Positions 20,610 through 61,179 of a stretch of 64,000 nucleotides of DNA are shown in pieces. Position numbers and translations under genes: made by a program. This stretch comes from an uncultured bacterium (GTDB taxonomy: Bacteria > Fidelibacterota > Marinisomatia > Marinisomatales > UBA2128): contig CAZHRR010000002.1 in the NCBI GenBank assembly GCA_964534955.1, positions 11,069-75,068 of the forward strand. The letters are read 5' to 3'. The notes below the pieces were generated by a model. The model searched no databases. It was not told the origin of the DNA and saw nothing but the letters and a program-made list of their open reading frames with translations. The stretch's first letter is position 1. Each line of letters opens with the position of its first letter.

Positions 20610-20710
20610 ATTGCCCTACTCGATATTATTAGAGGATAAAACTGTATTCACCTTTATTGTACCTTCACTTTTCCATGGCACATAATCTCCCATCTGACTA
20701 AACTTAGCGC

Positions 20711-24562: not shown

Positions 24563-24566
24563 AAAA

Positions 24567-26387: not shown

Positions 26388-26482
26388 CAATGCGACTGCT
26401 ATCCTACGATTCTAGCGAAGAGGTTAGCAGCAATTAGGACAGGAAACATTAGAGAAAAGAATATTTGCAGCAGGAGTGTCTG

Positions 26483-41934: not shown

Positions 41935-42089
41935 TAGCTGAAAAGCCGGTAGAAGATCAACAGACGACAGGAGTCACATGTTATTCTGTACACGGGGTAA
42001 ATATGTGAGCCAGTTCATTGGAAAGAGTATTCCGAGTGTGTAACTTTCGTTCTGATTTTGGGGGTGAGAAAATAATACAGGAGTACATA

Positions 42090-44894
42090 ATGGCACACAT
42101 GCAGAAGATAGCGGTAGTTATGGTTTTAATTTCCATTCTATCAGCAAAGGAAGGAAACAGTCCCATAGCGGAATTTGGACTGGAAGAGTTTCGGGAAACT
42201 ATCTCTCTAAATGGCAAGACTACTGACGCAGAGAGTAGTATTGTTCGGACATGGTCTCAAATTCCAGAGTACAATATCCGTGGTGATGCTCGATTAGCAG
42301 CCGAGAGCTTTCTGAAGGCCAACAGCAAGCAGATGGGTTTCGATAACCGTCTGAGTGAACCCAGCTTCTGGTACGAGAAGAAAAGCAGAGGTATCACGTT
42401 CGAGACCTATCAACAGACAATTGAGGGGATTCCGGTTTTTCGTGGTGATATAACAGTTACCGTAAATCGCCAGAACCGGGTGAGCTTCCTTCGAAACAAC
42501 ACTCGTTTAGTAGATAATGTTTCTTCTCGATCGGCAGTATTTACCTCCGAGGCTGCCAGGCAGATTGCAGTGGAGTACATCAATCCTGCGGAAGAAATTC
42601 GCTGGGAAGCAGAGCCAGTCCAGAACTATCTGGTGCAGGACAAAACCGCTTACCTCACATGGGTCATCGAATTTGAAACACCGGATCCCCTGGGCGACTG
42701 GCGGCTGTTTGTGGATGCTGTGACTGGGGAAGTCAGGGCCCTGGAAAACCGCATTGTTTTCGACAACGGTTCCGGCATGATTTGGGATCCTGATCCACTC
42801 AGTTCCGCCTATGCAGAGTATGGTGATGACGGTTTCAGTGACAACAATGATGCTGACACGGATCAGCTCAACGGAGAGCGGTTTACGGCAGATTTGCTGG
42901 ACATAACTTACTCCGGAGGTGTTTATCAGCTGCAAGGACCTCATGTCTCAGTAGTAGATTGGGATTCTCCAACGGTTCCGGTCGTCACTAGTACTACGCC
43001 AGACGGTTTTGTTTTCACTCGCACAGAAAGCGGGTTCGAAGATGTGCTGGTTTATTACTTTGTGGATATGACTCAGCGTTACATCCAGTCCCTCGGTTTT
43101 GATAATGTGAACAATGAGTCACAAACCTCTGATCCTCACGGTGCAAACGGTGCGGACAATTCCTACTATTTCCCCGGATCCGATGCCATCGCATGGGGAG
43201 AAGGTGGTGTAGATGATGCAGAGGATGCCGATGTAATCCTGCATGAATACGGTCACGCCATTCAGCACGATCAGGTGCCAGGCTGGGGCGGAGGTGACGA
43301 AGGAGCCATGGGTGAGGGTTTCGGTGACTATTGGGCAGGTTCACACAGTCTAACCATCTCTGATCATCACTCCAACTGGGTGTTCAACTGGGATGGACAT
43401 AATCCTTTCTGGTCAGGCAGGATTCTTGATGCTAACTACCATTATCCTGAAGATAACGGCGGCGGTGTTCATAACGCTGGTCAACTCTGGTCAGCTGGAT
43501 TGTGGGACTGCCACACCGATCCTGGTATATCTCGGGAAAATATGGATGCTCTGGTGTTGCAGAACCATTTCATGATCGGTTCAAGCGCCACCATGGCAGA
43601 TGCTGCAGCGGCTATCATTCAGGCAGATATTGATATGTTTGGTGCTGAGCATTACAACCTGCTGGTACAACATTTCAGTGACAGGGGATTCATTGATCCG
43701 GATGACTATCCGCCAATGAGCGATGACCTCGACCCCAACCCACCCACTAATCTTGCCGCCTACAGTGATGATACAATGCCTACTAGTATCCAGCTGATCT
43801 GGGAAGATCCCACTGAACTGTTCGGTGGTGGAGAGATTGGTACATTCCAGATTAACATCTCCCGGGATGGCGAACCTATCGCCGAAGTGTGGGAAGGAGT
43901 GGAAAGTTACCTTGATGAGGATCTCGGCGAAGGACAGTCTTACTATTATACTTTTGTGACACAGCTTGTGGCGAACGACAGCACCAGTTATCCAGTACAT
44001 GTAGCTGGATTTGCCGGTGGAGCACCTTCGATTCTTATTTGGGATATGGGAAATTCCAGTTCTAACTCGGAGGCGATTCTAGGAGCCATCAGTGAAGCTA
44101 CAGGTCGGTCTGCTTACATTACGGATGACCTGTTCATGTTTGGAGATGATCTTAGTGCAGTCGGATTCGATGCCATCTTTGTGCTCCTGGGTATTTACTC
44201 GAATAACCATGTACTGGGTGAAGGTGCGCAAGTCACTGCTCTTGTCAATTATCTGGAGAACGGCGGCAGTCTCTACATGGAAGGGGGTGACACCTGGGCA
44301 TACGATACCCAAACTTCGCTCCATGCTTACTTTGGCATAGATGGTTTAGATGATGGTTCGGACGACCTTTCGACTGTGTCAGGTATCGCCGGGACGTTTA
44401 CAGAAGGGATGGACTTTTCTTACAGCGGAGAGAACGCTTGGATTGATCATTTGTCACCTGATGGAGAGACTGCCTTTGCGATTCTAGAGAATCTTGATGC
44501 TGCATATATCTGCGGTGTAGCAAATGCTGCTGACAGCTATAGTACAATCGGCACATCTTTTCAGCTTGGCGGTTTAGATGGAAGCGATGAACTGACGACT
44601 CTGGTGGCTGCAATGATGGAATTCTTCGATGTGGGCGGTGTGGCGCCATGTGAAAAAGGAGATCTCAATTCTGATGGTGTAATTGATGTTTTTGATGTGA
44701 TCAGAATTGTAAACATCATCCTGGGGATTGAGACCAATCCGACAGAAGGAGAGTTATGTGCCGCTGATTATGATGACAGTGGAGAAATTGATGTGTTCGA
44801 TATTATTAAGGTAGTGAATTACATCCTCGGTATCGGGGCTGGTCAGTCTGTTGACTGGTTTGATGCAAACGTGCTGAACCAGAGAGTGAAATGA
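42090..44894 (+). CDS. Secreted zinc metalloprotease with an FTP/PepSY-type propeptide and a C-terminal dockerin
   Basis: Signal peptide from the ATG at 42090. HEYGHAIQH and GEGFGDYWAG are catalytic-type motifs. Two dockerin EF-hand repeats are present (DLNSDGVIDVFDVIRIVNIILG, DYDDSGEIDVFDIIKVVNYILG). Confidence 0.7.
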   Translation: MAHMQKIAVVMVLISILSAKEGNSPIAEFGLEEFRETISLNGKTTDAESSIVRTWSQIPEYNIRGDARLAAESFLKANSKQMGFDNRLSEPSFWYEKKSRGITFETYQQTIEGIPVFRGDITVTVNRQNRVSFLRNNTRLVDNVSSRSAVFTSEAARQIAVEYINPAEEIRWEAEPVQNYLVQDKTAYLTWVIEFETPDPLGDWRLFVDAVTGEVRALENRIVFDNGSGMIWDPDPLSSAYAEYGDDGFSDNNDADTDQLNGERFTADLLDITYSGGVYQLQGPHVSVVDWDSPTVPVVTSTTPDGFVFTRTESGFEDVLVYYFVDMTQRYIQSLGFDNVNNESQTSDPHGANGADNSYYFPGSDAIAWGEGGVDDAEDADVILHEYGHAIQHDQVPGWGGGDEGAMGEGFGDYWAGSHSLTISDHHSNWVFNWDGHNPFWSGRILDANYHYPEDNGGGVHNAGQLWSAGLWDCHTDPGISRENMDALVLQNHFMIGSSATMADAAAAIIQADIDMFGAEHYNLLVQHFSDRGFIDPDDYPPMSDDLDPNPPTNLAAYSDDTMPTSIQLIWEDPTELFGGGEIGTFQINISRDGEPIAEVWEGVESYLDEDLGEGQSYYYTFVTQLVANDSTSYPVHVAGFAGGAPSILIWDMGNSSSNSEAILGAISEATGRSAYITDDLFMFGDDLSAVGFDAIFVLLGIYSNNHVLGEGAQVTALVNYLENGGSLYMEGGDTWAYDTQTSLHAYFGIDGLDDGSDDLSTVSGIAGTFTEGMDFSYSGENAWIDHLSPDGETAFAILENLDAAYICGVANAADSYSTIGTSFQLGGLDGSDELTTLVAAMMEFFDVGGVAPCEKGDLNSDGVIDVFDVIRIVNIILGIETNPTEGELCAADYDDSGEIDVFDIIKVVNYILGIGAGQSVDWFDANVLNQRVK

Positions 44895-44924: not shown

Positions 44925-46433
44925 ATGAAGACAGTGCTAATGAGCATGCTCATTCCGCTGATGGTTTGGGCGGTTGAGTTTAATCCAAATGTACCGGTAG
45001 TGATTGCTGAATCGACACAAAAACTACCTGACATTGCTGTGGGAGATGATGGAACGATTTATGCTATCTGGGTGGATACACGGTTCGGTACCAACGTCTA
45101 TTTCGCTAAGTCAACTGATCACGGCGAGACGTTTACAGAAGGAGTACAGGTGAATGACGAGACAGGTCAGGTAGTATCATTGACGTCAAATCACCCGAAG
45201 ATCGCAGAATATGAAGGTATACTCTACGTCTTCTGGGCAGATCAGCGTAGCGGTTATTACAATACTAACATTTACATGTCAAAATCCATAGATGGAGGAG
45301 AAACGTGGAGTGCAGGAACTTCTGTCGGAAACGGAGTTAAGTTTAATCTCTATCCGGAAGTCGAAATAGATAATAGTGGTACCATTCATCTGATTTACTA
45401 TGTATACAGTAGAATAACATTGGAATTCGAGACGGTGGGGTACCGGACATCGACAAACAACGGCAGTACTTTTTCCTTTCAGACAACAGTAAGTGACTAT
45501 TCCGGAAGTGAACCGTGCGAATGTTGTCCTGCCGATATCGTCATTCTTCCTGATGGGAACAAGATAGTAACCTTTCGTGACAACGATGAAAATATCCGAG
45601 ATATCTTTGGCATACGTTCGCAAGCCGGCTCAAGCAGCTGGGATGATCTCTTCCAGATCTCGTTCGAGGATTTCTTCATAACGTATTGTCCTTCCTCCGG
45701 TCCCAGCCTGGACAACCTGGAATCCACAGTAGCTGTAGGCTACATGGTAGGAGTCGAAAGTGTACCGCGAACTTTCCTGAAGATCTCTACAGATGGTGGA
45801 GAGACGTTTGGTGACTCCATTGCTGTGGATCCTTCTGTGGCCTCTGACGTGATCCAGGACTATCCCTCGGTCGCTATGACCTCAGATGGCATGATTCACA
45901 TCGCTTGGGAGGATCGTAGAGACGGATCTGATATCTACTACGGCAGTATGATGGCTGGTGACTCCGAATTGAGCACCCTTCAGATTTTGAATGACGACGG
46001 TTCAGGTGAGTCACAGGGAGAAGTGCGAATGGTAAATGGAAACGATGGGTTTGTTTATGCCGTTTGGACTGATAAACGCAACGGTGACTACGATATCTAC
46101 TTTACCACAAACTATGGCCAAGCTGAGGTGGAAGAGATGAAACCATCGGTGCCGACTGCTCAAGTTCTCCATCAGAATTATCCCAATCCCTTCAATCCGG
46201 GAACAGTAATCCGTTTTGAACTTACTAACAGGGAGGTGATCACTTTAATGATTCATGACATTCTGGGGAGAGAAATCAAAAGACTGGAGAGTGGTAAACT
46301 GGTGAGTGGTACCTATGAAGCGGTGTGGGATGGAACCGACGCTGGAGGAAGTCCGGTCAGCCCAGGAGTTTATTTCTATAGACTTTCCAGTGGTGCCGGT
46401 GATGAGACAAGGAAAATGGTATTGATTAAATAA
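44925..46433 (+). CDS. BNR/Asp-box repeat protein with a T9SS C-terminal sorting domain
   Basis: Asp-boxes: STDHGETF, SIDGGETW, STNNGSTF, STDGGETF. The C-terminus is NYPNPFNPGTVIRF...GVYFYRL...KMVLIK. Confidence 0.7.
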   Translation: MKTVLMSMLIPLMVWAVEFNPNVPVVIAESTQKLPDIAVGDDGTIYAIWVDTRFGTNVYFAKSTDHGETFTEGVQVNDETGQVVSLTSNHPKIAEYEGILYVFWADQRSGYYNTNIYMSKSIDGGETWSAGTSVGNGVKFNLYPEVEIDNSGTIHLIYYVYSRITLEFETVGYRTSTNNGSTFSFQTTVSDYSGSEPCECCPADIVILPDGNKIVTFRDNDENIRDIFGIRSQAGSSSWDDLFQISFEDFFITYCPSSGPSLDNLESTVAVGYMVGVESVPRTFLKISTDGGETFGDSIAVDPSVASDVIQDYPSVAMTSDGMIHIAWEDRRDGSDIYYGSMMAGDSELSTLQILNDDGSGESQGEVRMVNGNDGFVYAVWTDKRNGDYDIYFTTNYGQAEVEEMKPSVPTAQVLHQNYPNPFNPGTVIRFELTNREVITLMIHDILGREIKRLESGKLVSGTYEAVWDGTDAGGSPVSPGVYFYRLSSGAGDETRKMVLIK

Positions 46434-46746
46434 GTCCGTGAATGTGTTTTCAGCCCGGGATAGGAGTATCATAGGATGGGTTTTTTCTGTGAATAAAAAA
46501 CATGTGAGGGATATGCAGTGAAAATCGGAAACGCTCTGGAAAATCTCCCAACGGTAGGAAAAACCGAAATTGATTTGAGCAACAAACTAATCCGTGTATA
46601 AGATTTGGTTATCAACCTTTCAGCGGAGGATTTGATTAAAAATAGTGTGTATATACCATTCAGCGGTTTGTGGCGGGAATGACACTTATGTGAGGATGTG
46701 ATGTTACAGTTATCAATTTGTATTGTAACAGTAATCAAGTGAGATT

Positions 46747-47508
46747 TTGATGGGTGAACTGCTTCAAGTTACCAGCTCTTGGCGCTCCCAGATGGGAGTC
46801 ATGAGAGCAAAGAACGAAGACAGCTGTTTTGCGAACGATAGTAATGGCTTATATTGTGTCGCCGATGGCATAGGTGGCGCCCCTGCCGGAGAGGTGGCCA
46901 GCAGTGTGGCTGTAGATCTTTTTGTATCAGAGTCTTCCAGGATTAGTGACCATTCAGAACCGTGGCAAGTTTCTGATTTGGAAGAGATGCTTTCCCGCTT
47001 AAACAGTGGAATTATAGAGTACAGTCAGCGGGATAGCAGTCTGATGGGAATGGGTACGACTTTCTCTGGAGTGATCTCTGAGAGTTCATCCCGATGGTGG
47101 ATTATGCATGCTGGTGACAGCAGGATTTACGCTGTTTCAAAAGATGATCAACTCGTTCAGCTCACCAAAGATCAGACACTGGCTGAGGAGAGAATCAAAA
47201 TGGGCCTGACACCTAAAGGAGGGATTTATGGACACCGGACAGAAGATATCCTGACAAATTATCTCGGATCTGATATGTTCTCTCCAGTTGTTAATGCTAT
47301 TGTTCCCCGGGAATATGAGTTGCTCCTCTTGTGTACTGACGGTATTACTAAAATGCTGAACTTAGAAGACATCTCTTCTATTGTACAGTCGAGTATTAAT
47401 GATATTGATGAACTTTGTGGACGTCTTGTTAAAGCTGCTGGAGAAGCCGGGAGTGGAGACGATATGACTCTTGTAGCAGTCTCTATTAATACAGATGAAG
47501 ATCGGTAG
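46747..47508 (+). CDS. PP2C-family Ser/Thr phosphatase
   Basis: RAKNEDS, VADGIGGAPAGEVAS, TDGI and GSGDDMT motifs. Confidence 0.85.
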   Translation: MMGELLQVTSSWRSQMGVMRAKNEDSCFANDSNGLYCVADGIGGAPAGEVASSVAVDLFVSESSRISDHSEPWQVSDLEEMLSRLNSGIIEYSQRDSSLMGMGTTFSGVISESSSRWWIMHAGDSRIYAVSKDDQLVQLTKDQTLAEERIKMGLTPKGGIYGHRTEDILTNYLGSDMFSPVVNAIVPREYELLLLCTDGITKMLNLEDISSIVQSSINDIDELCGRLVKAAGEAGSGDDMTLVAVSINTDEDR

Positions 47509-48499
47509 AATGAACAGAGAAATTGTATTTGTGACGATTCTGATCCTTGTCATGATTGCAGCGTGTACACAGGACGCTCCCCGGGACAATATCTTTGATC
47601 CCAATAGTTCCCTTTTTGAAAACTCCGGAACCATTGAAGGAACAATAACAGGACAGTATCCTCCCTATGATCCTGTGGAATCTGTCCAGGTAGAGTTGTC
47701 TCCGGAAAACACGATCGTATTTAGTGATCAGGAAGGGATATTCATGTTAGATAGATTAAAGCCCGGCGATTATACCCTACTTTTAAGTAAGGACCAGTAC
47801 GTGCCGATTGTTGATACTGTTACAGTAATTGCAGGAGAGACTTCTAATGTGCTGGTACGAATGAATGGTAAACCCACAATAGACTCGGTTGATCTGGTAA
47901 CTAAACACATATCCCACTGGTGGCCCATCGCAGATGAGTATATCCTGTCGGTGACTGTTACGGTCTCAGATATTGACAACGCTTTGGATGTTGATTCCGT
48001 CATTATGAATGTTGATGCTCTGGGATTCGATACACTTCTAACTGAAGGTTCTTCGGGCGAGTTCACAGCGACCTATTTTGATAGTGATTTTCTTCCCGAG
48101 CCGTTCTCCGAGTTGCAGGGAAGGGATATCTCATTCCACTGTATTGATAAGCCCGGGTCAATAAGTGATACCCTCGACTTTCAGGTTTCCCGGATCATCT
48201 CTTCAACACCAACCATCGTTTCTCCAAGCAGCGGAGTCTCAGTAGATTCTCTGCCGGTCTTTCGCTGGAGCAGTTTCGAGGTAGGGTACAGCTTCACTTA
48301 TTCAGTGGATGTTTTCAGGCTCGATGAGTCTGGTATCCCGCAGTTTGTGCAAGGAAGTGATGAACTTGATATCTCAACATTTCAGTGGCAAGCTGAGACT
48401 CCGCTCCCCTCAGCACCGCTATATTATTGGACACTCTCGGTTACTGATGGATTTGGGAATATCAGCGTCTCCAGAGAAGCAACATTTGAGGTACAATGA
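47495..48499 (+). CDS. Lipoprotein with a CarboxypepD_reg-like domain
   Basis: Lipobox (MIAACT), then GTIEGTITG...EGIFMLDRLKPGDYTLLLSKDQYVP. Overlaps both neighbouring genes. Confidence 0.55.
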   Translation: MKIGRMNREIVFVTILILVMIAACTQDAPRDNIFDPNSSLFENSGTIEGTITGQYPPYDPVESVQVELSPENTIVFSDQEGIFMLDRLKPGDYTLLLSKDQYVPIVDTVTVIAGETSNVLVRMNGKPTIDSVDLVTKHISHWWPIADEYILSVTVTVSDIDNALDVDSVIMNVDALGFDTLLTEGSSGEFTATYFDSDFLPEPFSELQGRDISFHCIDKPGSISDTLDFQVSRIISSTPTIVSPSSGVSVDSLPVFRWSSFEVGYSFTYSVDVFRLDESGIPQFVQGSDELDISTFQWQAETPLPSAPLYYWTLSVTDGFGNISVSREATFEVQ

Positions 48500-49977
48500 C
48501 AACGAATAGACAGAAAGAGTTTTTCGATGCGCTCATCCGTGTGAGCGAAGCCATGCTTGAGAAGGATGACACACATCTGCTCTTGGAACGAATTCTTGAT
48601 ATAGCCATGGAAGTAGTGGAAGCAGAGAGAGGATTTGTACTGGTATCAAGCCTTCAGGAGAAAGGGGAGATTATTCCGGCGATTTACAGGAATATCGATC
48701 CTGAGAACTTCCTTGAGAAGGAACGCTATTCGCGCGGGGTTGTGGAACAGGTGATGGAAACCGGTGAACCGGTCGTCACAATCAATGCTGTTGAAGACGA
48801 ACGATTTAAGGGACGGGAAAGTGTGGTCATTAACAAGCTGACCTCTATTATATGTGTACCTATCCAATACGGAAAAGACCGGGTTGGCTACATCTATCTG
48901 GACAGTCAGGACCGGCGTTCCCGATTCAACATGGAGTCGCTTGACTTTATGAAAGTCTTCTCGACTCAGGCAGGTCTGGCCTTGGCCAACACTGATTTTG
49001 TCAGTCGTCTCTCCCTGGAAATTGAAGCGCTTCGTTCCCAAACGGAAACTGAGTATCCCTTCAGTGAGATTATCGGCCGAAGTCCCGGCATTAAAGAAGT
49101 ATTCAAGATAACTGAAAAGGTGATGGCTACAGACGTACCTGTTATAATTCTGGGCGATAGCGGAACAGGTAAGGAGCTAATCGCCAGAGCCATCCATTTC
49201 AAGGGTCTCCGCTCTGATAAGCCGTTTATAGCACAGTTCTGCGGGGCTCTTTCTGACAACCTGCTGGAGAGCGAGCTTTTTGGATACAAAAAGGGTGCAT
49301 TCACTGGTGCCGCGAAGGATAAGCCGGGCCTGATCGAAGCGGCGAATGGCGGGACGTTCTTCCTCGATGAAATTGCCGATGTTTCGCTGGAGATTCAAAC
49401 CAAGTTATTGCGCTTTATCCAGGAAGGTGAATTCCGGCGAGTGGGTGACACTCAAATCCGAAAAGCTGATGTGCGAATCATCTCTGCCACGAATAAAGAT
49501 TTAGAGGCAGTGGTTAAAGAAGGCAAGTTCCGTGAAGATCTCTATTATCGACTAAATGTGGTTTCCATCCACATGCCGTCCCTTTCCGAGCGGCGTGATG
49601 ATATTCCACTTCTTGCTGACTATTTCCTTGAAAAGTACTGCCAGCGGCACCACAAAAAGATCGATGGATTTACGCAGTCTGCAATGGAAGCAATGTTAAG
49701 GCACGACTGGCCAGGTAATGTTCGAGAACTTCAAAATGCCATTCAGAGGGGTGTGACACTGTGTACGGAAGATAAAATCACTCCTGAGCAACTTGGTCTC
49801 TTCGGAAGCTACGATGCAGACGAAGCTGAGCCTCAGACATTGGAAGAGATGGAGCGTGCCTTTGTGCTCCAGATATTGCGGGATATGGACGGTAACAGGA
49901 CCAAAACTGCTCAGAAATTAGGGAAGTCTCTGCGGTGGCTTCAATACCGTCTGAAGGAATGGCAGATTGAAGATTAA
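48496..49977 (+). CDS. Sigma-54-dependent transcriptional activator (GAF-AAA+-HTH, no receiver domain)
   Basis: N-terminal GAF-like domain, Walker A GDSGTGKE, GAFTGA, ESELFG and a C-terminal Fis-type HTH (RTKTAQKLGKS). Confidence 0.9.
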   Translation: MTTNRQKEFFDALIRVSEAMLEKDDTHLLLERILDIAMEVVEAERGFVLVSSLQEKGEIIPAIYRNIDPENFLEKERYSRGVVEQVMETGEPVVTINAVEDERFKGRESVVINKLTSIICVPIQYGKDRVGYIYLDSQDRRSRFNMESLDFMKVFSTQAGLALANTDFVSRLSLEIEALRSQTETEYPFSEIIGRSPGIKEVFKITEKVMATDVPVIILGDSGTGKELIARAIHFKGLRSDKPFIAQFCGALSDNLLESELFGYKKGAFTGAAKDKPGLIEAANGGTFFLDEIADVSLEIQTKLLRFIQEGEFRRVGDTQIRKADVRIISATNKDLEAVVKEGKFREDLYYRLNVVSIHMPSLSERRDDIPLLADYFLEKYCQRHHKKIDGFTQSAMEAMLRHDWPGNVRELQNAIQRGVTLCTEDKITPEQLGLFGSYDADEAEPQTLEEMERAFVLQILRDMDGNRTKTAQKLGKSLRWLQYRLKEWQIED

Positions 49978-51547
49978 CGGATACACAATTTTACAAGTTA
50001 TCACTGAAACTCAAGGTATGAAAACTGCCGTAGCAATACAGGAGTCTCTTGATCGTAAAGTCTTTTTGAAAATACTCACCAAGGATTTTTCTTCTCACGA
50101 AGATATACTGGTGCAGTTCGAGAGTGAAGCAAAGGCACTGGCGAAGCTGGATGATCCGAACATCGTAACCGTTTACGAGTTTGTGCGAACCGGAGAAACC
50201 CCGTTCATTGTGCTGGAGTACTATCTGGGGGACGACCTTCATTCGATTCTGCAGGAGCGAGGGCCATTCAGCGAAGACGAATTGTTCAGCGTCATGGAAC
50301 AGTGTTTAAAGGCTGTTTCCGGAGCGCATACCGCCGGAATACTGCATCGCGATATTAAGCCCGAGAACGTGCTCATGAATGATGGCGGCCTGGTTAAAAT
50401 TACAGATTTTGGTATGGCAAGCCTGAAAGGTTCTTCTGATGCTGAACTGTTTTCTGGGGGAACGCCAGGTTATCTGGCGCCGGAACTGGCGTTGGGAGAA
50501 GCTCCTTCGGAACAAACTGATATATTTGCTCTTGGCATGACGTTATATGAACTGGCGTCGGGAGTAAATCCTTTGCGTGAGGATGATCTGAACAAAGCTC
50601 TCAATCTGGCAGTTTCTCATATTCCTGATAAGCTGAGTGCACAACGTGAAGAACTTTCTCAACCTCTAATAAGAATCATAGAGCGGATGATCGTGAAATC
50701 ACCTGATGAGCGTTATAAGAATTGTGAAAGAGCTTTATCAGATCTCAAGGAAATTGGAATAGGAACAGCCAAGGAGCCAGAAGCACCCGTGGTTAGGCAG
50801 AAAACGACGACACCTAAAAGCAATTTGAAGCAGAAAAGATGGTTGCGCGCTGTCCCATTTGCTGTTTTGATCGCGGTTATCATCGGTTACTGGTGGTTGT
50901 CGTCATATCAGGATGAAGGCGTGGTGCCCACTACTGAATCGCAGCAGTTAGATGAAGACATTCCTCCCTCGGAAGTCGTAGCTGAGGATAAGTATACCAA
51001 GGAAGTTCAGCCACCAACTTTTGAGGCTGAACAGCAAGATGCGGTTCAAGTAGCGGCTGTGAAAGAGACACAAGCATCAGAGGTGCCTCAATCACTAGGG
51101 GGGGTGACAGCGAATATCAATGTTGGTAAGTCAAAGTCAGGTATTCTAATTATGGCGAACCCGTGGGCAGAAATCTCCATTGACAACAAAACCATTGGAA
51201 CCACACCATTTAAAACTCCTGTGACTCTTGCCGCCGGAGATCACGAAGTTCTCTTCCGGAATCCGGATTATCCAGAATACTCCCGGTCATTTACTTTACA
51301 AGATTCAAGTATTGATACACTTTATTTTCGTTGGGAAGATGTTTTTGGATACGTGGAGTTATCGGCTCATCCCTGGGCTAAAGTATGGATTGATGGTAGG
51401 TACATTGACGTTACACCTTTGGAAGGTAATCTGGCACTGTCGGTCGGTGAACATCATCTACTGCTGAAGAATCCTGATTTTCCGGTTTGGCAAAAGTACT
51501 TCAATGTAACAGCAGGCGATACAGTTCATTTTAAAGTGCAGTTGTGA
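49967..51547 (+). CDS. Hanks-type Ser/Thr protein kinase with a TM segment and two PEGA-like domains
   Basis: HRDIKPENVLM, DFGMA and GTPGYLAPE motifs. A TM segment (AVPFAVLIAVIIGYWWL). C-terminal ANPWAEISIDNKTIGTTPF and AHPWAKVWIDGRYIDVTPL. The TTG start overlaps the activator gene. Confidence 0.9.
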   Translation: MKINGYTILQVITETQGMKTAVAIQESLDRKVFLKILTKDFSSHEDILVQFESEAKALAKLDDPNIVTVYEFVRTGETPFIVLEYYLGDDLHSILQERGPFSEDELFSVMEQCLKAVSGAHTAGILHRDIKPENVLMNDGGLVKITDFGMASLKGSSDAELFSGGTPGYLAPELALGEAPSEQTDIFALGMTLYELASGVNPLREDDLNKALNLAVSHIPDKLSAQREELSQPLIRIIERMIVKSPDERYKNCERALSDLKEIGIGTAKEPEAPVVRQKTTTPKSNLKQKRWLRAVPFAVLIAVIIGYWWLSSYQDEGVVPTTESQQLDEDIPPSEVVAEDKYTKEVQPPTFEAEQQDAVQVAAVKETQASEVPQSLGGVTANINVGKSKSGILIMANPWAEISIDNKTIGTTPFKTPVTLAAGDHEVLFRNPDYPEYSRSFTLQDSSIDTLYFRWEDVFGYVELSAHPWAKVWIDGRYIDVTPLEGNLALSVGEHHLLLKNPDFPVWQKYFNVTAGDTVHFKVQL

Positions 51548-51569
51548 TGGAAACACAAAAACAGAGTTT

Positions 51570-51585
51570 TGGCACGGGGTTTGCA
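51570..51585 (+). promoter_or_regulatory. Sigma-54 (-24/-12) promoter
   Basis: TGGCACGGGGTTTGCA matches TGGCAC-N5-TTGCW exactly. It lies 22 nt after the kinase stop and 14 nt before the next ATG. Confidence 0.7.
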
Positions 51586-51599
51586 CTATTATAACTGAG

Positions 51600-52844
51600 A
51601 TGAAAATCAACCTCAGAATAATCACTGTCACACTGCTTTTTTTCGGCAACATTCTGGCACAGGGTGAATGGTCTGAACGGGCTGCACTACCGGAACATAG
51701 AGTGGGACACGCAGCGGTTGTTGTAGATTCAATAATCTACCTCATTGGAGGAAAGGGCGGGCAGCAGCACCACTCCTCGGATGAGTTCTGGTCATACAAT
51801 CCTGAAACAGATACATGGAACACAGATCTTCCGTCTCTGAACAACCCCCGGTCTTCACTGACGGCAGCGGCGATGGGCGATACTATCCTTGTTTTTGGCG
51901 GGAGGCATATGTCCAATATTGAGGAGGACGTTGAGCAGTATATAATTGGCTCAGAATCCTGGGAGGTAGTAGGGACCATGCCCGAACCGCGTATGGGATT
52001 GGGCAGTGCAGTCATTGACGGAAAAGTTTATCTCTTCGGCGGCAAGACCTCGGCAGGGATGTTTGCGTTACCTACAGATCAAGTAGATGTTTTTGATCCC
52101 TTCATGGATGAATGGACTGAAGGTCCATCTCTAAATCAGGCAAGGACGGATTTTGGAAGTTCTTCAATGGAGAACACGATTATATGTGCAGGGGGGAGCT
52201 CTGTAGATCCGTTGTCTGATGTTGAGATACTTGAGGACCAAACAGCATGGACAGAAATCGCACCCCTCGACGAGCCGAGAAGCAATACGTCCGCTGTCTT
52301 TCTTGATGGACAGTTTGTACTCCTCGGTGGCTATACATCAGAAGGACTCAGTCAGTCTAATCTTATTCTCGTGGGTGACCTGTGGGAAGAGTTTCCTGAG
52401 ATGCTGCTGCCGAGATACGATCATACTTCAGTAGAATTGGATGGAAAGATCTACGTGATGGGCGGCCGCAGCGGCCAGCAGCCTATGGATTCTCACGAAC
52501 GTTACATGCCGACGGCTTCCGTAAACGAAGAGTTCGATTCAATGCCAAAGTCATTTGAAGTTACTGGTCCGTATCCCAACCCGTTCAACAGTACATTCGC
52601 CTTTGCAATTCATCTACCTTCGGATGCACTTGGTAACCTCAGCATGAAACTCATCGATGTTAGAGGTTTGCTGGTCTATGAGGGAAATCTTTACGGGACA
52701 GGAAATGGAGATATTATCCGAATAGACATGGAACAACTGCAGTTGGGATTTTTGTCAAGTGGCATCTACATCCTGCAGCTTCAGTGGTCAGATACAAAAA
52801 CAACTATATTATCAACAGCTCGCAGGATTGTCTATCTAAAATGA
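51600..52844 (+). CDS. Kelch-repeat protein with a T9SS C-terminal sorting domain
   Basis: Signal peptide, ~6 Kelch-like blades (repeated ..Y.IGG / VFGG / LFGG / VMGG) and a C-terminal PYPNPFNSTFAF...GIYILQL...IVYLK. Confidence 0.8.
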   Translation: MKINLRIITVTLLFFGNILAQGEWSERAALPEHRVGHAAVVVDSIIYLIGGKGGQQHHSSDEFWSYNPETDTWNTDLPSLNNPRSSLTAAAMGDTILVFGGRHMSNIEEDVEQYIIGSESWEVVGTMPEPRMGLGSAVIDGKVYLFGGKTSAGMFALPTDQVDVFDPFMDEWTEGPSLNQARTDFGSSSMENTIICAGGSSVDPLSDVEILEDQTAWTEIAPLDEPRSNTSAVFLDGQFVLLGGYTSEGLSQSNLILVGDLWEEFPEMLLPRYDHTSVELDGKIYVMGGRSGQQPMDSHERYMPTASVNEEFDSMPKSFEVTGPYPNPFNSTFAFAIHLPSDALGNLSMKLIDVRGLLVYEGNLYGTGNGDIIRIDMEQLQLGFLSSGIYILQLQWSDTKTTILSTARRIVYLK

Positions 52845-53551
52845 ATCGTCTATTTCTCATAATATCTTTACTGTCTGGGGGCTGTTTTGCATTACCTCAA
52901 AGTGAGAGTGATGAGGATATATCCTCTAAAGCTGTACGGGAAGCATATAATTCAATGCAGTACAAAGATGTTATCAGGATGGTGAAAGCAGAACTGGAGA
53001 CTCATCCCAGCCAGAACCGGGAAGATCTGAGATTGTATTTGAAGTACCTGGCATTAGCACTCTTCGTGGAGGAAGGCGAGGAAGCTGCTACTGGTGCTCT
53101 TACCTCACTGCTGTTGGTAGATCCTGCATTCGAATTTTCTGAGAGTGAAGCTTCACCGAAAATATTGGCTCTGTTTGAAAGCATCAGGCAGAACGGGCAG
53201 TACTCAAATGAAGCTGAGCATGAAGTTGATAAATACATTGTGGTAGAGGATACCCGAAATTCTGAGATTCTGGCATCCGCACTTTTTCCAGGGCAGGGAC
53301 AGCTAATGCGAAATCAGTCCAGGGGGTATATTTACCGGGCAGTTTTTGGATTTTCTCTCGGTGGAGGTTTGTACTATGCATATCTGACCAGCAAGAACCA
53401 TGAAGAGTATTTGCAGTCATATAACCAGACAGCTATAGATTTGGCGTATGATGAATATAATTTTAGCTACAAGGCGAGGAATAATCTTTTTCTTCTATCA
53501 CTGATAACCTACATAGTAAGTCTCGCGGACGTAGCTCTTACCTCTAAATAG
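52841..53551 (+). CDS. Lipoprotein-like protein with a DUF5683-like C-terminal membrane region
   Basis: ATGA overlap with the Kelch gene. Signal (LLSGGCFA), a helical repeat region, then ALFPGQGQLMRNQSRGYIYRAVFGF. Confidence 0.45.
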   Translation: MNRLFLIISLLSGGCFALPQSESDEDISSKAVREAYNSMQYKDVIRMVKAELETHPSQNREDLRLYLKYLALALFVEEGEEAATGALTSLLLVDPAFEFSESEASPKILALFESIRQNGQYSNEAEHEVDKYIVVEDTRNSEILASALFPGQGQLMRNQSRGYIYRAVFGFSLGGGLYYAYLTSKNHEEYLQSYNQTAIDLAYDEYNFSYKARNNLFLLSLITYIVSLADVALTSK

Positions 53552-53739
53552 CTACCTATTTCACTCTAAACGATACGCAGAATTTGCGCACCCCTATGCA
53601 GACTATTCGCAGCTGCCTTCCCGTTTCTAATGGATTGAAAGATTGTAACGAAGAGAAAATCGTTTGGCATGGTATTTGTCTCCGTATAGGCAGAATGATG
53701 AATAAAACAACTAACTTAGCAACAGATAAGGAGAACAAA

Positions 53740-54681
53740 ATGAAAACTACAAGTGTAATAAGGCTTCTTGCTATTGCCATCACGTCTTTTGCGGTGATGT
53801 TCTTGGTTCCTGATCTTGCAGCTCAAGGTCATGGCGGAGGCATGGGCGGAGGCGGTAACGGCGGTGGCATGGGTGGAGGCGACTGCGGAGGCGATTCCAC
53901 GGGTCACGGCGGCGGTATGCACGACTCACTGGAAGTAATAACAGCGAGTGGTATTGTACTTATTGATTCAACCGAGATGGGTTGGAATCACGATTCTACA
54001 GGTCATGGGGGAGGTTGCAACGATGATTCTTCTGGTCATGGCCACGGGAACCACGGTTTCTACGGACATAACGGTTCCGGTAATAGCGAGATGGACATGA
54101 CAAGTTATATGGATGAAAGAGACTTTGGCGACTCGCTCATGCTCGTTTACTTTCTAGATGAAGATGAAGACGGTGAAGCCGATTATGTTTTGAACTTTGG
54201 TCCACCATGGTATACTCCGGAAGATTCAACACTGACCCGTCCGGAAGCGGGCGAGTATATCACCGTGAGTGGTTATCTCATGACTGAGTCACCGATGTGG
54301 GATTTCAGTGTAATCATTGTGACGGAGCTGAATGGCCAACCCTGGCGAGATTTTGATGGTTTTGGACACGGAGGCAGGATATCCGGGCTTGACAGGAAGA
54401 TCTCCTATATCGGCAGTCACGGAAACTTCCCGAATCCATTCAACCCGTCCACAACCGTCACTTTCGAGATTCTCGAAGCCTCTAAAGTCAAAGTGACAAT
54501 CTATGATATTCTCGGTCGCGAAGTGAATACGCTGATGAACAGGTATGCTGTACCAGGAACATACAATGTTGTATGGGACGGCAGTGGAATTGGCGGCAGT
54601 CAAGTAGCTGCTGGACTCTACCTGTATCGAATCAGTACAAATACGAGTTCCGTGACCAAACTGATTAATTATCTCAAGTAA
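53740..54681 (+). CDS. Gly/His-rich secreted protein with a T9SS C-terminal sorting domain
   Basis: The ATG at 53740 follows aaggaga. Signal peptide, then GHGGGMGGGGNGGGMGGGDCGGDSTGHGGGMH and STGHGGGCNDDSSGHGHGNHGFYGHNG. The C-terminus is FPNPFNPSTTVTF...GLYLYRI...LINYLK. Confidence 0.6.
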   Translation: MKTTSVIRLLAIAITSFAVMFLVPDLAAQGHGGGMGGGGNGGGMGGGDCGGDSTGHGGGMHDSLEVITASGIVLIDSTEMGWNHDSTGHGGGCNDDSSGHGHGNHGFYGHNGSGNSEMDMTSYMDERDFGDSLMLVYFLDEDEDGEADYVLNFGPPWYTPEDSTLTRPEAGEYITVSGYLMTESPMWDFSVIIVTELNGQPWRDFDGFGHGGRISGLDRKISYIGSHGNFPNPFNPSTTVTFEILEASKVKVTIYDILGREVNTLMNRYAVPGTYNVVWDGSGIGGSQVAAGLYLYRISTNTSSVTKLINYLK

Positions 54682-54712
54682 GACGCACGGAAATATAGAT
54701 TCAAACAAACGA

Positions 54713-54744
54713 AGAGGCGCTCTGTTGGGCGCCTCTCTTTTTTT
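54713..54744 (+). terminator. Rho-independent terminator
   Basis: The stem AGAGGCGC (54713-54720) / GCGCCTCT (54729-54736) is followed by CTTTTTTT. Confidence 0.75.
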
Positions 54745-55338: not shown

Positions 55339-55557
55339 ATGGCTACATTAAAGGATACATTCTCAACCATATCAGGATGGGCTGGTGATATCGTAAATCT
55401 GGGTCTATCCCTGGCATTGGTATTCCTGATCGTAGATATCCTGTTTCCAGGAACGACCGGTATTGTAGGCAACGTGGCTGACCTTGTGTCAGAGTTCACG
55501 AGTGAAGGTCTTGTTGGTCTCATTACCTTCATCGTCTTCCTGGCTATTTACAGGTAG
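55339..55557 (+). CDS. Small two-TM membrane protein, paralog A (72 aa)
   Basis: RBS aggaggg lies upstream, and the gene ends in a TAG TAG double stop. Many differences from paralog B are synonymous in this frame (for example D I L F P G T T G is conserved through gat/gac, atc/att, ctg/tta, cca/ccg, acg/act, acc/aca). Confidence 0.6.
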   Translation: MATLKDTFSTISGWAGDIVNLGLSLALVFLIVDILFPGTTGIVGNVADLVSEFTSEGLVGLITFIVFLAIYR

Positions 55558-55703: not shown

Positions 55704-55925
55704 ATGGCTACATTGAGAGATACATTAAGGACGACGAGCGGCTGGATGAAGGAAATTTTCGAATTCGGCGTCGCTCTAATCCTGCTATTCGTTGTGATCG
55801 ACATTTTATTTCCGGGAACTACAGGTGTCGTGAACAACATTGGGGAGATAGTGAGCAACTTTGCCTCTGAAGGTATTGTGGGGCTGATTGCATTGCTCAT
55901 CTTCCTGCTAATCTACAAGCGATAG
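55704..55925 (+). CDS. Small two-TM membrane protein, paralog B (73 aa)
   Basis: RBS caggaga lies upstream, and the gene ends in a TAG TAG double stop. By my manual count, 40 of 72 aligned residues are identical to paralog A. Two hairpins follow (55946-55979, 55986-56025). Confidence 0.6.
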   Translation: MATLRDTLRTTSGWMKEIFEFGVALILLFVVIDILFPGTTGVVNNIGEIVSNFASEGIVGLIALLIFLLIYKR

Positions 55926-56403: not shown

Positions 56404-57975
56404 ATGAAGTCTGCCGGGAATAAACTGAAATCACATTTTTTTGGTATTAAACTGCGAAAAAGGCGGAAGGATTTTGGTCTTACTCTGGAAGATCTCATGA
56501 ATCGGTGCATTGCATTAGATGCTTCAAATGCCCCATCAATTTCATATCTCAGTCTCCTTGAGACCGGTCGACGAGCCCCGACGGAGAAACTAATCGACAT
56601 TTTCAGCGAACTGTTTAATGAATCTCCCGAGTGGTTTCTCGATGATTCTACCGGGATAGATGATAACAATGATACTCATCCCACCAATGAGTTTATGTTA
56701 GAACCCCGAGTTCTTTTCGATCAGTCAATTCTTAGACGTGCTGTTCCGGACGTGTTAACTCAAACCGGAACTTCAGGTCGTAGATTTGCCTATGCTTTAA
56801 TAAGTGCACTTCGTGAACGACAGAAAAATCACTTTCCTGATTTGGAAAGGGAGGCGGAGTCTTTGGGGAATAAGAAGTTGCCTATGGATCTTGACACCAT
56901 CTTTAAAATATGTGCCAAGGTAGGCTTGGAAGTGAAATGGTTCGATAATCCGCCTGTAAAAGTAGCTGTAGAGGAAGCAGGAGAGGAAATTCGCTCTCTT
57001 GCCCGCTCATTTTTTCAGTCACCGAATACAATTTGGATTAATAGACGATTAGAGAAACAGCAGGATCGTTTGATGTTTGAAATATCGCTTAGGCTGGCCC
57101 ATATGGTACTTCATGGTGGTGACGGAGTCATTTCGGATCACGCTACAGGAGGAGAACTGGGTGCAGCGCCGGAGGGAGAAATACCGCCTACTTTTGTACA
57201 ACACCAGAGGGATGTACTGGTAGCTTGGCGTGATTATGAATGCAGCTATTATGCCTCTGCTTTACTGCTGCCACGACAACCATTTAAGCGTTTCTTGATC
57301 CGTACTCAATACGACGTTCAACAGGCGGAAAAACTGGGATATACACCTTCCATGGTTATGAGAAGGATGACATCGGTCTCTCCATACCGGTACTGGCACT
57401 ATTTCGATGTGTATCCGCCTCACTTCATCCGGGTATACTACCGGGGGAATGACATACCATTACCACATCATCATGATGCCCTTCATCCCGACAGTATCTG
57501 TGGTAAATGGGGTATATATCAAGTGACAAAAAATCCCGCTCTTAAGCATATTACCCAGCTCTCCTTAATGAGACAAGACGAAAGACGGAACCTATATGCC
57601 TGTCACAGTGTTCGGGCCAGGGATGCAGCCGGAAATAGACATGTTTTGGCTATCGGGATTGACTTGGAGCCTGCTCTGGAGTCCACAGGCAAGTCCTTCT
57701 CCACAATAGTCAATGCTGTGGAAGATCATGTGTCAAATCATCCTGGCAAACCACTAAGTGATGAGGTTCAGAGAGAGTTTCAGCCTGCCCTTGGTCTGCT
57801 GAATATGGGGTTCGCTGCTGATGCGGTAAAACTTCCACCTGAAATAGTATGTACTTGGGCAAGATTTTGTCCCCGGACTAATAAGTGTACCGGAGCTCCC
57901 AAATCAATACCGACCAAGTCTCCTATAGTAAAATTGAGGCATGAGATACTTTCTGGAAATTCTGATCAAGAATAG
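56404..57975 (+). CDS. XRE-family HTH regulator with an ImmA/IrrE-like and a DUF2083-like region (ScfR/PrpR-like architecture)
   Basis: N-terminal HTH (LRKRRKDFGLTLEDL...ISYLSLLETGRR). The central FEISLRLAHMVLH replaces HExxH. YYASALLLPRQPF, YDVQQAEKLGYTPSMVMRRMTSV and ICGKWGIYQV resemble the ScfR family. The C-terminus is Cys-rich (CTWARFCPRTNKC). Confidence 0.55.
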   Translation: MKSAGNKLKSHFFGIKLRKRRKDFGLTLEDLMNRCIALDASNAPSISYLSLLETGRRAPTEKLIDIFSELFNESPEWFLDDSTGIDDNNDTHPTNEFMLEPRVLFDQSILRRAVPDVLTQTGTSGRRFAYALISALRERQKNHFPDLEREAESLGNKKLPMDLDTIFKICAKVGLEVKWFDNPPVKVAVEEAGEEIRSLARSFFQSPNTIWINRRLEKQQDRLMFEISLRLAHMVLHGGDGVISDHATGGELGAAPEGEIPPTFVQHQRDVLVAWRDYECSYYASALLLPRQPFKRFLIRTQYDVQQAEKLGYTPSMVMRRMTSVSPYRYWHYFDVYPPHFIRVYYRGNDIPLPHHHDALHPDSICGKWGIYQVTKNPALKHITQLSLMRQDERRNLYACHSVRARDAAGNRHVLAIGIDLEPALESTGKSFSTIVNAVEDHVSNHPGKPLSDEVQREFQPALGLLNMGFAADAVKLPPEIVCTWARFCPRTNKCTGAPKSIPTKSPIVKLRHEILSGNSDQE

Positions 57976-59861: not shown

Positions 59862-61179
59862 TGCTCGGTTTCATGCTGTCAGAATGTTGACGGATTTCGA
59901 TCGAACAGGCGAAAGATTATCCTCTGTCTCTGCTCGCTATCTCAGAGGAAGAGAACGTATTTCACACTTAGAAGAAATCACCTTCCTAGTGCAGGAAACT
60001 ATGCGGTGGCGGGGATACCTTGACTCAGTCATCTGTCGCTTCTACCGAGGGAAGTACACGAAAGTCGAGCACGTGCTGAAGAATATATTACGTCTGGGTG
60101 CTTATGAACTGATCTTCCGGAACCAGGTGCCTTCTTATGCAGTAGTAAACGAGGCGGTGGAACTGACCCGTCGGCTGGCGAGCGAAAAATCTGCAGGACT
60201 AACAAATGCAATACTGCGAAAAATGTCAGAGACAGACTATCCAAAGCCGGGAATTGTATCGCAAAGCGATAGTCTGGCGAAGATATCTGAGCTCACATCC
60301 CATCCTCAATGGATGATTGAACGCTGGCTGAAGCGGTATGGATTCGAGGAAACAGTTGAACTATGTAATTGGAATAATCAGGTACCTTCTTTCACCGTCT
60401 GGAGGAATCCGGCACAGGTGGAAGCGTCTCAGTGGGAAGAGGAATTGGAAGGTTTGGGCATCAATTGGGCAATGAGCACATCTATTAAGAATTATTATCA
60501 TGTGGACTCACTTTCGCGACTGTTACAGAGCGAAGCCTATGGAAAAGGATGGTTCGCAGTACAGGATACATCATCAGCTTTGATTGTGATGTTGGCGGTA
60601 GAAAACACCAAAGGACAGGTACTTGATGTCTGTTGTGCCCCTGGCGGGAAGACTGCTGCTCTATCAAGCAGGCTTGGAACTGATGTTCCTGTTATTGCCT
60701 CAGATGTTAACGAAGAAAGGCTACAAAAAGTACGGGAAACTTTGAAGCGACTAAAAATATCAAATGTAACCGTTGAGAAAAAAGATGCCGCCAAAGATAA
60801 TTTTCAGGAGAGTAATGTCATTCTCATTGATGCACCATGCACAGGCACCGGCGTTATGTCCAAACGTGCTGATCTACGGTGGAGACGGACAGAGGAAAAT
60901 CTGGGAGAAATACAGTCGTTGCAATTGGAAATCCTTCGGCATATGGCGAACTTTGTGTCATCTAATGGAAGCATTATCTACTCTACCTGTTCACTGGAAC
61001 CGGAAGAGAATTGGGATGTGATTGATATGCTGTTGGAGGAACGTGACGACTTTGATGCAGTTAGGATTGAAAGAGAAGAGATTATTCCTTTCACGGATGA
61101 ACGTGGAGCAGTCTCCACTTTTCCACCTCGTGATGGCATGGATGGTGTATTTGGAGTAATATTGAAGAAATGTTCATAA
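59833..61179 (+). CDS. rsmB: 16S rRNA (cytosine-C5)-methyltransferase RsmB
   Basis: NusB-like N-terminal region, DVCCAPGGKT, DAPCTGTGV and YSTCS motifs. The exact start is uncertain (TTG/GTG cluster at 59833-59845). Confidence 0.85.
   Translation: MVIVLTQQDDARFHAVRMLTDFDRTGERLSSVSARYLRGRERISHLEEITFLVQETMRWRGYLDSVICRFYRGKYTKVEHVLKNILRLGAYELIFRNQVPSYAVVNEAVELTRRLASEKSAGLTNAILRKMSETDYPKPGIVSQSDSLAKISELTSHPQWMIERWLKRYGFEETVELCNWNNQVPSFTVWRNPAQVEASQWEEELEGLGINWAMSTSIKNYYHVDSLSRLLQSEAYGKGWFAVQDTSSALIVMLAVENTKGQVLDVCCAPGGKTAALSSRLGTDVPVIASDVNEERLQKVRETLKRLKISNVTVEKKDAAKDNFQESNVILIDAPCTGTGVMSKRADLRWRRTEENLGEIQSLQLEILRHMANFVSSNGSIIYSTCSLEPEENWDVIDMLLEERDDFDAVRIEREEIIPFTDERGAVSTFPPRDGMDGVFGVILKKCS

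Follow-up and report, generated by a model that had tools for sequence, protein, structure and literature searches.

Sigma-54 activators are, in the textbook view, controlled by histidine-kinase phosphorelays or by small ligands, and to our knowledge bacterial Hanks-type kinases mostly have no defined transcriptional output. The locus described here raises the question of whether Ser/Thr phosphorylation can gate an AAA+ sigma-54 activator that has neither an FHA nor a receiver domain. It is a block of seven genes within a 64-kb stretch of DNA (64,000 nucleotides, the window) from an uncultured Marinimicrobia bacterium, in which genes for a PP2C phosphatase, a lipoprotein, a GAF-domain activator and a membrane Hanks kinase stand ahead of genes for a Kelch protein, a DUF5683-like membrane protein and a Gly/Met/His-rich protein, the first and last of these three carrying tails of the type IX secretion system (T9SS). 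On balance, we take the block to be one of the copies of a module for envelope signalling and transcription that is conserved in bacteria of the Fibrobacterota-Chlorobiota-Bacteroidota (FCB) group. A search of the open literature on Hanks-kinase/GAF-activator modules, PEGA kinases, DUF5683, T9SS with sigma-54, and Rhodothermus found no description of such a module, and each of its parts, the NifA-like activator, the Hanks kinase, the PP2C phosphatase and the T9SS cargo, is of a kind already known.

Genes and domains were called from a list of open reading frames (ORFs) with Pfam and NCBIfam scans of the proteins of the window. Together with motif scans, these reproduced every position that an earlier note on this DNA had given for genes, domains, overlaps, promoter motif and terminator; its "eight-gene block" comes to seven genes in our count. 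The genes and the terminator are as follows.

46750-47508 (alternative TTG start at 46747), + strand: cytoplasmic PP2C (PPM) Ser/Thr phosphatase; PP2C_2, Stp1/IreP profile
47495-48499, + strand: lipoprotein, a family-specific envelope partner; CarboxypepD_reg, lipobox IAAC
48496-49977, + strand: sigma-54 enhancer-binding protein; GAF 25-165, AAA+ 192-359 with GAFTGA, Fis-type helix-turn-helix (HTH) 448-489
49967-51547, + strand: membrane Hanks-type Ser/Thr kinase; cytoplasmic Pkinase, one transmembrane helix at ~292-311, two PEGA domains outside the membrane
51600-52844, + strand: Kelch beta-propeller protein with signal peptide and T9SS type-A C-terminal domain; Kelch_1, TIGR04183
52841-53551, + strand: DUF5683-like membrane protein (gene 6), 236 aa; signal peptide, TPR-like domain, two C-terminal transmembrane helices
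53740-54681, + strand: Gly/Met/His-rich protein with T9SS tail (gene 7) and a conserved central domain; Por_Secre_tail, TIGR04183
54713-54746, + strand: intrinsic terminator closing the block (hairpin 54713-54736 plus T-run); 10-bp stem with 7 G-C pairs

The evidence for a module comes from a comparison set of about 17 related loci (L002-L016, L018, L019 and L101-L104 are among the labels), of which L002-L010 are contigs of kinase orthologues and L011-L015 are genome-collection loci found with a lipoprotein profile, all Marinimicrobia metagenome-assembled genomes. The kinase search found orthologues at 93% and at 36-44% identity. In about ten Marinimicrobia lineages, with kinase identities of 36-93% and different flanks, the order of the seven genes is kept wherever the contig reaches. 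Five of the genes, for the lipoprotein, the GAF activator, the PEGA Hanks kinase, the Kelch T9SS protein and the TPR/DUF5683-like membrane protein, form a conserved core that recurs in a Rhodothermus sp. (L101), in R. marinus DSM 4252 (L103, CP001807.1 562033-579742), in L102 and in L104, the last a 5.3-Mb genome. Parts of the core are found in L016 (Edwardsbacteria, in permuted order), L018 and L019. In all seven of these loci the kinase is a more distant relative, at 26-31% identity, and again lies beside a GAF activator, the lipoprotein, a Kelch protein and a TPR/DUF5683-like protein. The Kelch gene follows the kinase gene in nearly all loci of the family and some gene always occupies the position of gene 6. 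The PP2C phosphatase, found in each Marinimicrobia version with a contig that reaches its position, and the Gly/Met/His-rich T9SS protein are Marinimicrobia additions to this core.

The tightest association is that of activator and kinase. The stop codon of the activator gene overlaps the start of the kinase gene in the window and in every locus that keeps this order, and each kinase relative whose context was looked up adjoins a GAF activator. By comparison, a Hanks kinase lies in the flanks of only one of 80 loci that hold unrelated activators; these came from a metagenome scan with the activator C-terminus, which was swamped by the generic WPGNVREL pattern, and serve as a negative control. 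The family is also large, with more than 100 full-length kinase clusters and, in a search of 1.84 billion proteins with the lipoprotein profile, about 90 full-length representatives among the top 150 matches. The gene overlaps claimed for the window (47495 vs 47508, 48496 vs 48499 and 49967 vs 49977) are borne out by the ORF coordinates.

Domain scans bear out most of what the earlier note had read from the translations. The phosphatase matches PP2C fold profiles above threshold (PP2C_2 60.8 bits, cutoff 24; PP2C 43.4 bits, cutoff 20.3) and has the metal-binding Asp motifs, its translation showing NED, DGIGG, GDSR, TDG and DDMT with the metal-binding motifs intact; the Stp1/IreP profile spans it from end to end at 162 bits, under the equivalog cutoff of 230. 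The lipoprotein has the CarboxypepD_reg match and lipobox claimed for it, and in the family comparison Cys24 and the C-x-DAPRDNxFDP motif that follows it at the N-terminus are invariant. Its AlphaFold model (pLDDT 85) consists of three beta-sandwiches of the immunoglobulin (Ig)/FN3-like kind, for which structure comparison gave generic Ig-like matches only and no clue to a ligand. The activator matches Sigma54_activat (PF00158) at 230 bits and HTH_8 at 28.9 bits; Walker A and B are intact, these motifs are kept in 13 aligned family members, and GAFTGA or GSFTGA is intact in all orthologues. No receiver (REC) or FHA domain was matched by Pfam or NCBIfam in any protein of the block and GAF is the sole N-terminal domain detected in the activator, as had been proposed. 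Its best full-length profile is NifA, at 375 bits against an equivalog cutoff of 529, and NorR (303 bits, cutoff 476) and FhlA (269 bits, cutoff 830) are likewise below cutoff. The kinase is, as described, a membrane Hanks kinase with two PEGA-like domains: Pkinase is matched with an E value of 2.4e-45, PEGA in two stretches, and the transmembrane helix is detected. The catalytic Lys, the alphaC Glu, HRDIKPEN, DFG and GTPGYLAPE are conserved among 16 family members.

The proteins encoded downstream of the kinase were also correctly assigned, with one reservation. Signal peptides are visible in the translations of the Kelch protein and gene 7. Kelch_1 is matched with an E value of 1e-49 and TIGR04183 at 24.6 bits (cutoff 23), so that the Kelch-repeat T9SS assignment stands, with Por_Secre_tail at 23.6 bits falling below its cutoff of 27. 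Gene 6 was said to be DUF5683-like and ATGA-coupled to the Kelch gene. The coupling is there, the gene 6 ATG overlapping the Kelch stop, and the two are translationally coupled; the family match, however, is sub-threshold, DUF5683 (PF18935) giving 11.8 bits (E 0.25) against a gathering cutoff of 26.7, which the proteins at this position in L018 (25.5 bits) and L016 (21.8 bits) also fail to reach. Gene 6 would thus be a distant DUF5683 relative at best. Its TPR part has a weak match (24.7 bits, where the cutoff is 65) to TssQ, an unrelated family of lipoproteins associated with type VI secretion systems (T6SS). Gene 7 exceeds the cutoffs of both tail profiles (Por_Secre_tail 30.6 bits, cutoff 27; TIGR04183 35.8 bits, cutoff 23), in line with its description as a Gly/His-rich T9SS protein. 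Its start is most likely the ATG at 53740, as in the orthologues, rather than the TTG at 53584; AAGGAG lies at 53728-53733, 7 nt ahead of this ATG. AQGMGG...GGMHD opens the orthologues, in which Gly, Met and His abound. Sequence searches of the PDB with genes 6 and 7 gave nothing informative. The strong terminator reported at the end of the block is present as a hairpin and T-run.

In the two intergenic gaps of the block the following DNA elements were found.

51570-51585, + strand: P1, sigma-54 -24/-12 promoter TGGCACGGGGTTTGCA, exact TGGCAC-N5-TTGCW consensus; predicted start at ~51596, 4 nt before the Kelch ATG
53575-53589, no strand assigned: predicted upstream activator site (enhancer) ACGCAGAATTTGCGC, 90 bp before P2; 19.9 bits to the palindrome matrix of the family
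53596-53610, no strand assigned: possible degenerate second site ATGCAGACTATTCGC, 21 bp past the first; one half-site mutated, matrix score <11
53665-53680, + strand: P2, sigma-54-type promoter TGGCATGGTATTTGTC, TGGCAT-N5-TTG with GT at -12; predicted start at ~53691, giving a 49-nt leader

The exact TGGCAC-N5-TTGCW consensus, which P1 matches, is expected 0.04 times per window, and the looser TGGCAY-N5-TTG has just two matches on both strands of the 64 kb, both on the + strand and one in each of the two gaps. In the Marinimicrobia lineages P1 takes the form TGGCAY-N5-TTG, 10-15 nt ahead of the Kelch ATG, and an element of this type stands directly after the kinase stop in L002-L005, L011, L013-L015, L018, L102 and L104, within flanks that are divergent or cannot be aligned. 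L002-L004, L011, L014, L015 and L104 have P2 at the corresponding place as TGGCAC-N5-TTG(G/A), again with diverging flanks. The earlier note had proposed a sigma-54 promoter after the kinase gene and a weaker second element, and we consider both to be real because the same positions are kept in relatives while the flanks diverge. It had also named, beforehand, the conservation of promoter motif and gene linkage in relatives as one of the points on which its reading could fail; both are conserved. A further regulon within the window was looked for and rejected: the other matches to the promoter motif are one-mismatch noise at chance level, and the one at 19138 lies inside a gene.

Palindromes provide the second element. 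In the relatives two palindromes of the form nnGCA-N5-TGCnn stand right after the stop of the DUF5683-like gene, 21-22 bp apart and 111 and 89 bp before P2, and such tandem sites equivalent to that at 53575 occur in L002-L004, L011, L014-L016 and L104. In the window the first is preserved and the degenerate site occupies the position of the relatives' second. A matrix built from 15 sites (consensus ATGCAAAATTTGCAT) has one strong match in the 64-kb window, that of 19.9 bits at 53575, and in 725 kb of control loci with unrelated activators it has three matches of at least 15 bits. It also matches in the module spacers of L102, L103 and L104, none of which went into the matrix. Across the family the recognition-helix region of the activator, SLRWLQYRLKEW, co-varies with the palindrome. 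The tandem palindromes before P2 are the classic layout of an activator enhancer, here specific to the family, and they are predicted to be bound, presumably by the block's own activator. The description of the block as self-contained agrees with the fact that the only strong match to the activator site in 64 kb is inside it.

In other members of the family the same elements appear in other arrangements. In some distant relatives P1 is closely followed by a palindrome. Behind its activator gene, L016 carries TGGCATATAAATTGCA and three perfect-type palindromes. In L104 a promoter and two palindromes precede the activator gene, a promoter and one palindrome follow the kinase gene, and a palindrome pair and then a promoter follow the last core gene, while L102 has three sigma-54-type promoters, aimed at the Kelch gene and two flanking T9SS-type genes. 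In the two Rhodothermus loci (L103 ~11928-12320, L101 ~11925-12240) CGGCA(T/C)GTTCTTTGT(A/T) lies about 290 nt past the module's last palindrome, and then comes a conserved stretch of about 90 nt that ends in a terminator hairpin and has no ORF. It is possible that this stretch is a sigma-54-dependent small RNA; Rfam gave no matches on the window or the Rhodothermus loci. L018 and L102 have, divergent to their DUF5683-like gene, a gene for a single-domain response regulator (L018 4734-5260, minus strand; L102 11044-11472), and that of L018 has its own sigma-54-like promoter, TGGCATATTATTTGTA, with a palindrome-like site 40 bp upstream.

From these parts a mechanism can be proposed. The four regulatory genes, for the phosphatase, the lipoprotein, the activator and the kinase, would be read as one tightly coupled transcript. 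The GAF activator would bind the tandem palindromes and spend ATP to open the sigma-54 promoters, P1, immediately after the kinase gene, driving the genes for the Kelch and DUF5683-like proteins, and P2, 90 bp past the enhancer, that for the Gly/Met/His-rich T9SS protein. We think it probable, judging from the sites and their conservation, that the activator, bound to the palindromes, drives P2 with sigma-54, and probably P1 as well. The membrane Hanks kinase would govern the output of the activator. The two PEGA domains and the Ig-like lipoprotein, perhaps also the surface Kelch and TPR/DUF5683-like proteins, would read a cue from the envelope or surface; the kinase would then phosphorylate the activator, most plausibly in its GAF domain or N-terminal tail, and in Marinimicrobia the PP2C phosphatase would reverse this. 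Serines S79, S109, S117 and S137 of the GAF domain are invariant in the activator family alignment and are candidate acceptor sites, nothing more. The earlier note had treated the Kelch and DUF5683-like proteins as a regulon of T9SS cargo. The Kelch protein does have a T9SS tail, but both proteins may instead be signalling parts under feedback, because they are invariant members of the core whereas the PP2C phosphatase is not. Since they are core members encoded behind P1, it is likely that the circuit feeds back positively on the envelope parts it contains.

Whether the kinase controls the activator is in our judgement evenly balanced, the case in favour being their invariant linkage and translational coupling. 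More tentatively, we speculate that the block belongs to an undescribed trans-envelope system of the FCB group, in which the T9SS Kelch protein, the Ig-like lipoprotein and the TPR/DUF5683-like protein feed the PEGA kinase and this kinase directly phosphorylates the GAF domain of the co-translated activator. It would be a Ser/Thr equivalent of NtrB-NtrC without receiver or FHA domain and, in Marinimicrobia, would act in a copper/silver or envelope stress response through a near-leaderless sigma-54 transcript; we consider the whole of this possible rather than probable.

Several observations weigh against control by the kinase and against a functional P1, and they bear on three other explanations. 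Linkage is the sole argument that connects the kinase to the activator, and GAF might by itself respond to a small molecule. The two enzymes may then be wired in parallel, a ligand or metal on GAF switching the activator, as in NifA, NorR and FhlA, while the kinase and phosphatase act on other substrates such as envelope or secretion proteins and are co-encoded because they serve the same process. The intact and well conserved GAF domain and the NifA-like full-length profile fit this explanation, as does the lack of an FHA or other phospho-recognition domain in the block; several substrates are, moreover, usual for Hanks kinases. The phosphatase is dispensable in most lineages, being absent beside the module in L016, L019 and L101-L104. 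We nevertheless think parallel wiring unlikely, given that the kinase and activator genes are adjacent across phyla with overlapping stop and start, against a background of one in 80, and that the module has no conserved enzyme or transporter to make or import a ligand. The second explanation retains the link but not the chemistry: the membrane kinase would keep the co-translated activator inactive at the membrane until a signal releases it, in the manner of PspA-PspF or NifL-NifA, and phosphotransfer would be absent or of secondary importance. That activator and kinase are translationally coupled is suggestive of a stoichiometric complex, and in the Marinimicrobia branch the Gly-rich ATP-binding loop of the kinase (GxGxxG) is degenerate. 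In the window the loop, in the kinase N-terminus (49967-50060), reads ITETQGMKTAV; several Marinimicrobia orthologues have no Gly in it at all, and the Pfam Pkinase match begins past the loop. The catalytic Lys, HRD, DFG and APE are nevertheless all kept, which argues for selection on catalysis, and a dedicated Marinimicrobia PP2C phosphatase is sensible only if phosphorylation matters. Non-catalytic control therefore seems to us improbable.

The third explanation concerns P1, which may not work in this organism: the Kelch and DUF5683-like genes would be expressed by read-through from the regulatory operon, with only P2 dependent on the activator. There is no terminator between the kinase gene and the Kelch gene, so that read-through is possible, and the palindrome matrix scan of the window found no enhancer near P1. 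The kinase gene of L002-L004 and L013-L015 contains a palindrome, GTGCAnTTTnTGCAy, that is 325 bp upstream of P1, but as it encodes V(H/Q)F(M/L)H we did not count it as a P1 enhancer; it is missing in the window and also in L011. P1 itself is unusual in its predicted leader of 0-5 nt (start counted 12 nt from the -12 element), by contrast with the normal AAGGAG leader of gene 7, and Marinimicrobia P1 transcripts would be leaderless or nearly so. In the relatives the -12 position is not C but a variable base, the canonical P1 was not found in the R. marinus locus, and an RpoN-box pattern (a regular expression) matched nothing in the window or any fetched locus. Against a silent P1 stands the fact that every Marinimicrobia lineage, and also L018, L102 and L104, has TGGCAY-N5-TTG in precisely this position, with flanks that cannot be aligned; by chance, a spacer of about 50 nt would hold a match of the P1 type at a rate of the order of 1e-4 per lineage. 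We accordingly give read-through in place of P1 little credence and retain both promoters in the proposed circuit. A literature search for Marinimicrobia with sigma-54 or rpoN found nothing. L002 encodes a second, short sigma-54 activator (19934-21169, 411 aa, with GSFTGA and no N-terminal sensor domain) adjoining lptE, and this may be taken as indirect evidence that these genomes use sigma-54.

Compared with known systems, the activator resembles NifA, FhlA and NorR in its order of GAF, AAA+ with GAFTGA and Fis-type HTH, and presumably also in its binding sites, inverted repeats some 100 bp away from a -24/-12 promoter. The NifA site, TGT-N10-ACA, differs from the module palindrome, however, and the activator is below every named equivalog cutoff. 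We know of no named GAF activator (NifA, FhlA, NorR) that is co-encoded or translationally coupled with a Hanks kinase, as this one is. The closest ideas are the Myxococcus FHA-type activators and the PpkA/PppA pathway of the T6SS, but their defining FHA domain is absent in the block. Jelsbak, Givskov and Kaiser reportedly proposed in 2005 that FHA-domain enhancer-binding proteins of Myxococcus xanthus receive Ser/Thr-kinase input, and the shared idea is that of a sigma-54 activator under Hanks-type phosphorylation instead of a histidine kinase. The module differs in lacking FHA, in having the kinase in the same operon, in its FCB host, and in a local regulon and enhancer that are readable from sequence. 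In the Pseudomonas aeruginosa TagQRST-PpkA-PppA-Fha1 pathway, a membrane Hanks kinase that has a periplasmic domain is combined with a PP2C phosphatase, envelope accessory proteins and a secretion-related output. The parts list of the module is similar (Hanks kinase, PP2C, lipoprotein/TPR accessories, envelope cue), but the output of that pathway is post-translational activation of the T6SS via an FHA protein, whereas that of the module would be transcription via a sigma-54 activator; domain scans found no T6SS structural genes and no FHA substrate in the block or the window.

With NtrB-NtrC the module shares tandem palindromes spaced by two helical turns, some 100 bp upstream of a -24/-12 promoter, and its TGCA...TGCA resembles NtrC sites, but NtrB-NtrC has a receiver domain and a histidine kinase, neither of which is in the block. 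Stk1/PknB-Stp1 likewise encodes a Hanks kinase and a PP2C phosphatase together, and the best NCBIfam profiles of the block's pair are the Stk1-PASTA kinase and Stp1/IreP; the ectodomains are PASTA there and PEGA here, and the pair of the block is far under the equivalog cutoffs and coupled to an activator. In Porphyromonas, PorXY-SigP, a two-component system with an extracytoplasmic function sigma factor, regulates T9SS genes. It is like the module in being dedicated signalling over genes for T9SS-exported proteins in the FCB group, but it controls the secretion machinery, whereas the module would place a Hanks kinase and a sigma-54 activator over cargo-type genes.

Here sequence by itself yields a complete candidate circuit, with sensor parts, kinase and phosphatase, activator, DNA site, two promoters and a small local regulon, and this circuit is kept across hundreds of lineages. 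The copy in R. marinus DSM 4252, which is culturable and which we take to be genetically manipulable, makes the question posed at the outset testable. The block also offers a first handle on the regulation of surface and secreted proteins in uncultured Marinimicrobia, which is possibly metal-responsive.

The possibility of a metal signal comes from the neighbourhood. Copper-type genes, for HMBD proteins, a YHS P-type ATPase and an RND pump, come ahead of the block in most Marinimicrobia loci, and in L002-L004 and L012-L014 such genes directly adjoin it on that side. The window has a copper/silver-type island of like content (23-40 kb; 23312-29689 and 37701-40211), encoding an RND pump, a YHS+HMBD P-type ATPase, an outer-membrane factor and a CusB-like fusion protein with four HMBD repeats; two secreted-protein genes are inserted between island and module. 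In Rhodothermus a CzcB/RND pair and a two-component system lie 3-8 kb from the module. A composition rich in Gly, Met and His is of a kind known from Cu(I)/Ag(I)-binding proteins. Given the copper/silver neighbourhood and the Met/His-rich gene 7, metal or envelope stress is a candidate signal in Marinimicrobia, offered here as a hypothesis. Motif and matrix scans of the window found no promoter or enhancer ahead of its copper genes.

One doubtful feature lies upstream of the block.

46702-46708/46724-46730, no strand assigned: 7-nt inverted repeat TGTTACA-N15-TGTAACA

The earlier note had pointed to this repeat ahead of the regulatory operon. It is present, but it is not unusual, the same 327-nt spacer before the PP2C gene holding another 7-nt inverted repeat, and it is not conserved: in L002-L004 and L011-L014 the terminator hairpin of the preceding gene takes its place. 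As such repeats are common and the relatives do not keep this one ahead of their PP2C gene, we rejected it as an operator.

Nearly all ORFs of at least 150 aa in the window (1-64000) are on the + strand, including a complex I operon at 1-18.8 kb, and for this reason the shared orientation of the block with its neighbours carries little weight. At 42018-44894, upstream of the block, is a metallopeptidase of the FTP/PepSY/M36 type with a C-terminal dockerin type I repeat in place of a T9SS tail, and the next gene (44925-46433) encodes a BNR protein with a T9SS tail. Downstream, two paralogous membrane proteins of 72-73 aa (55339-55557 and 55704-55925; MATL[KR]DT...FPGTTG) belong to no Pfam family, and each gene is followed by a hairpin; also just downstream of the block is a protein with HTH_3, Peptidase_M78 (IrrE-like) and DUF3612 (56404-57975). 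Firmicutes encode PrpC and the PASTA kinase PrkC in the neighbourhood of def-fmt-rsmB, and in the window a 262-aa protein with three PASTA repeats and no kinase domain is encoded right after these genes, at 61170-61958.

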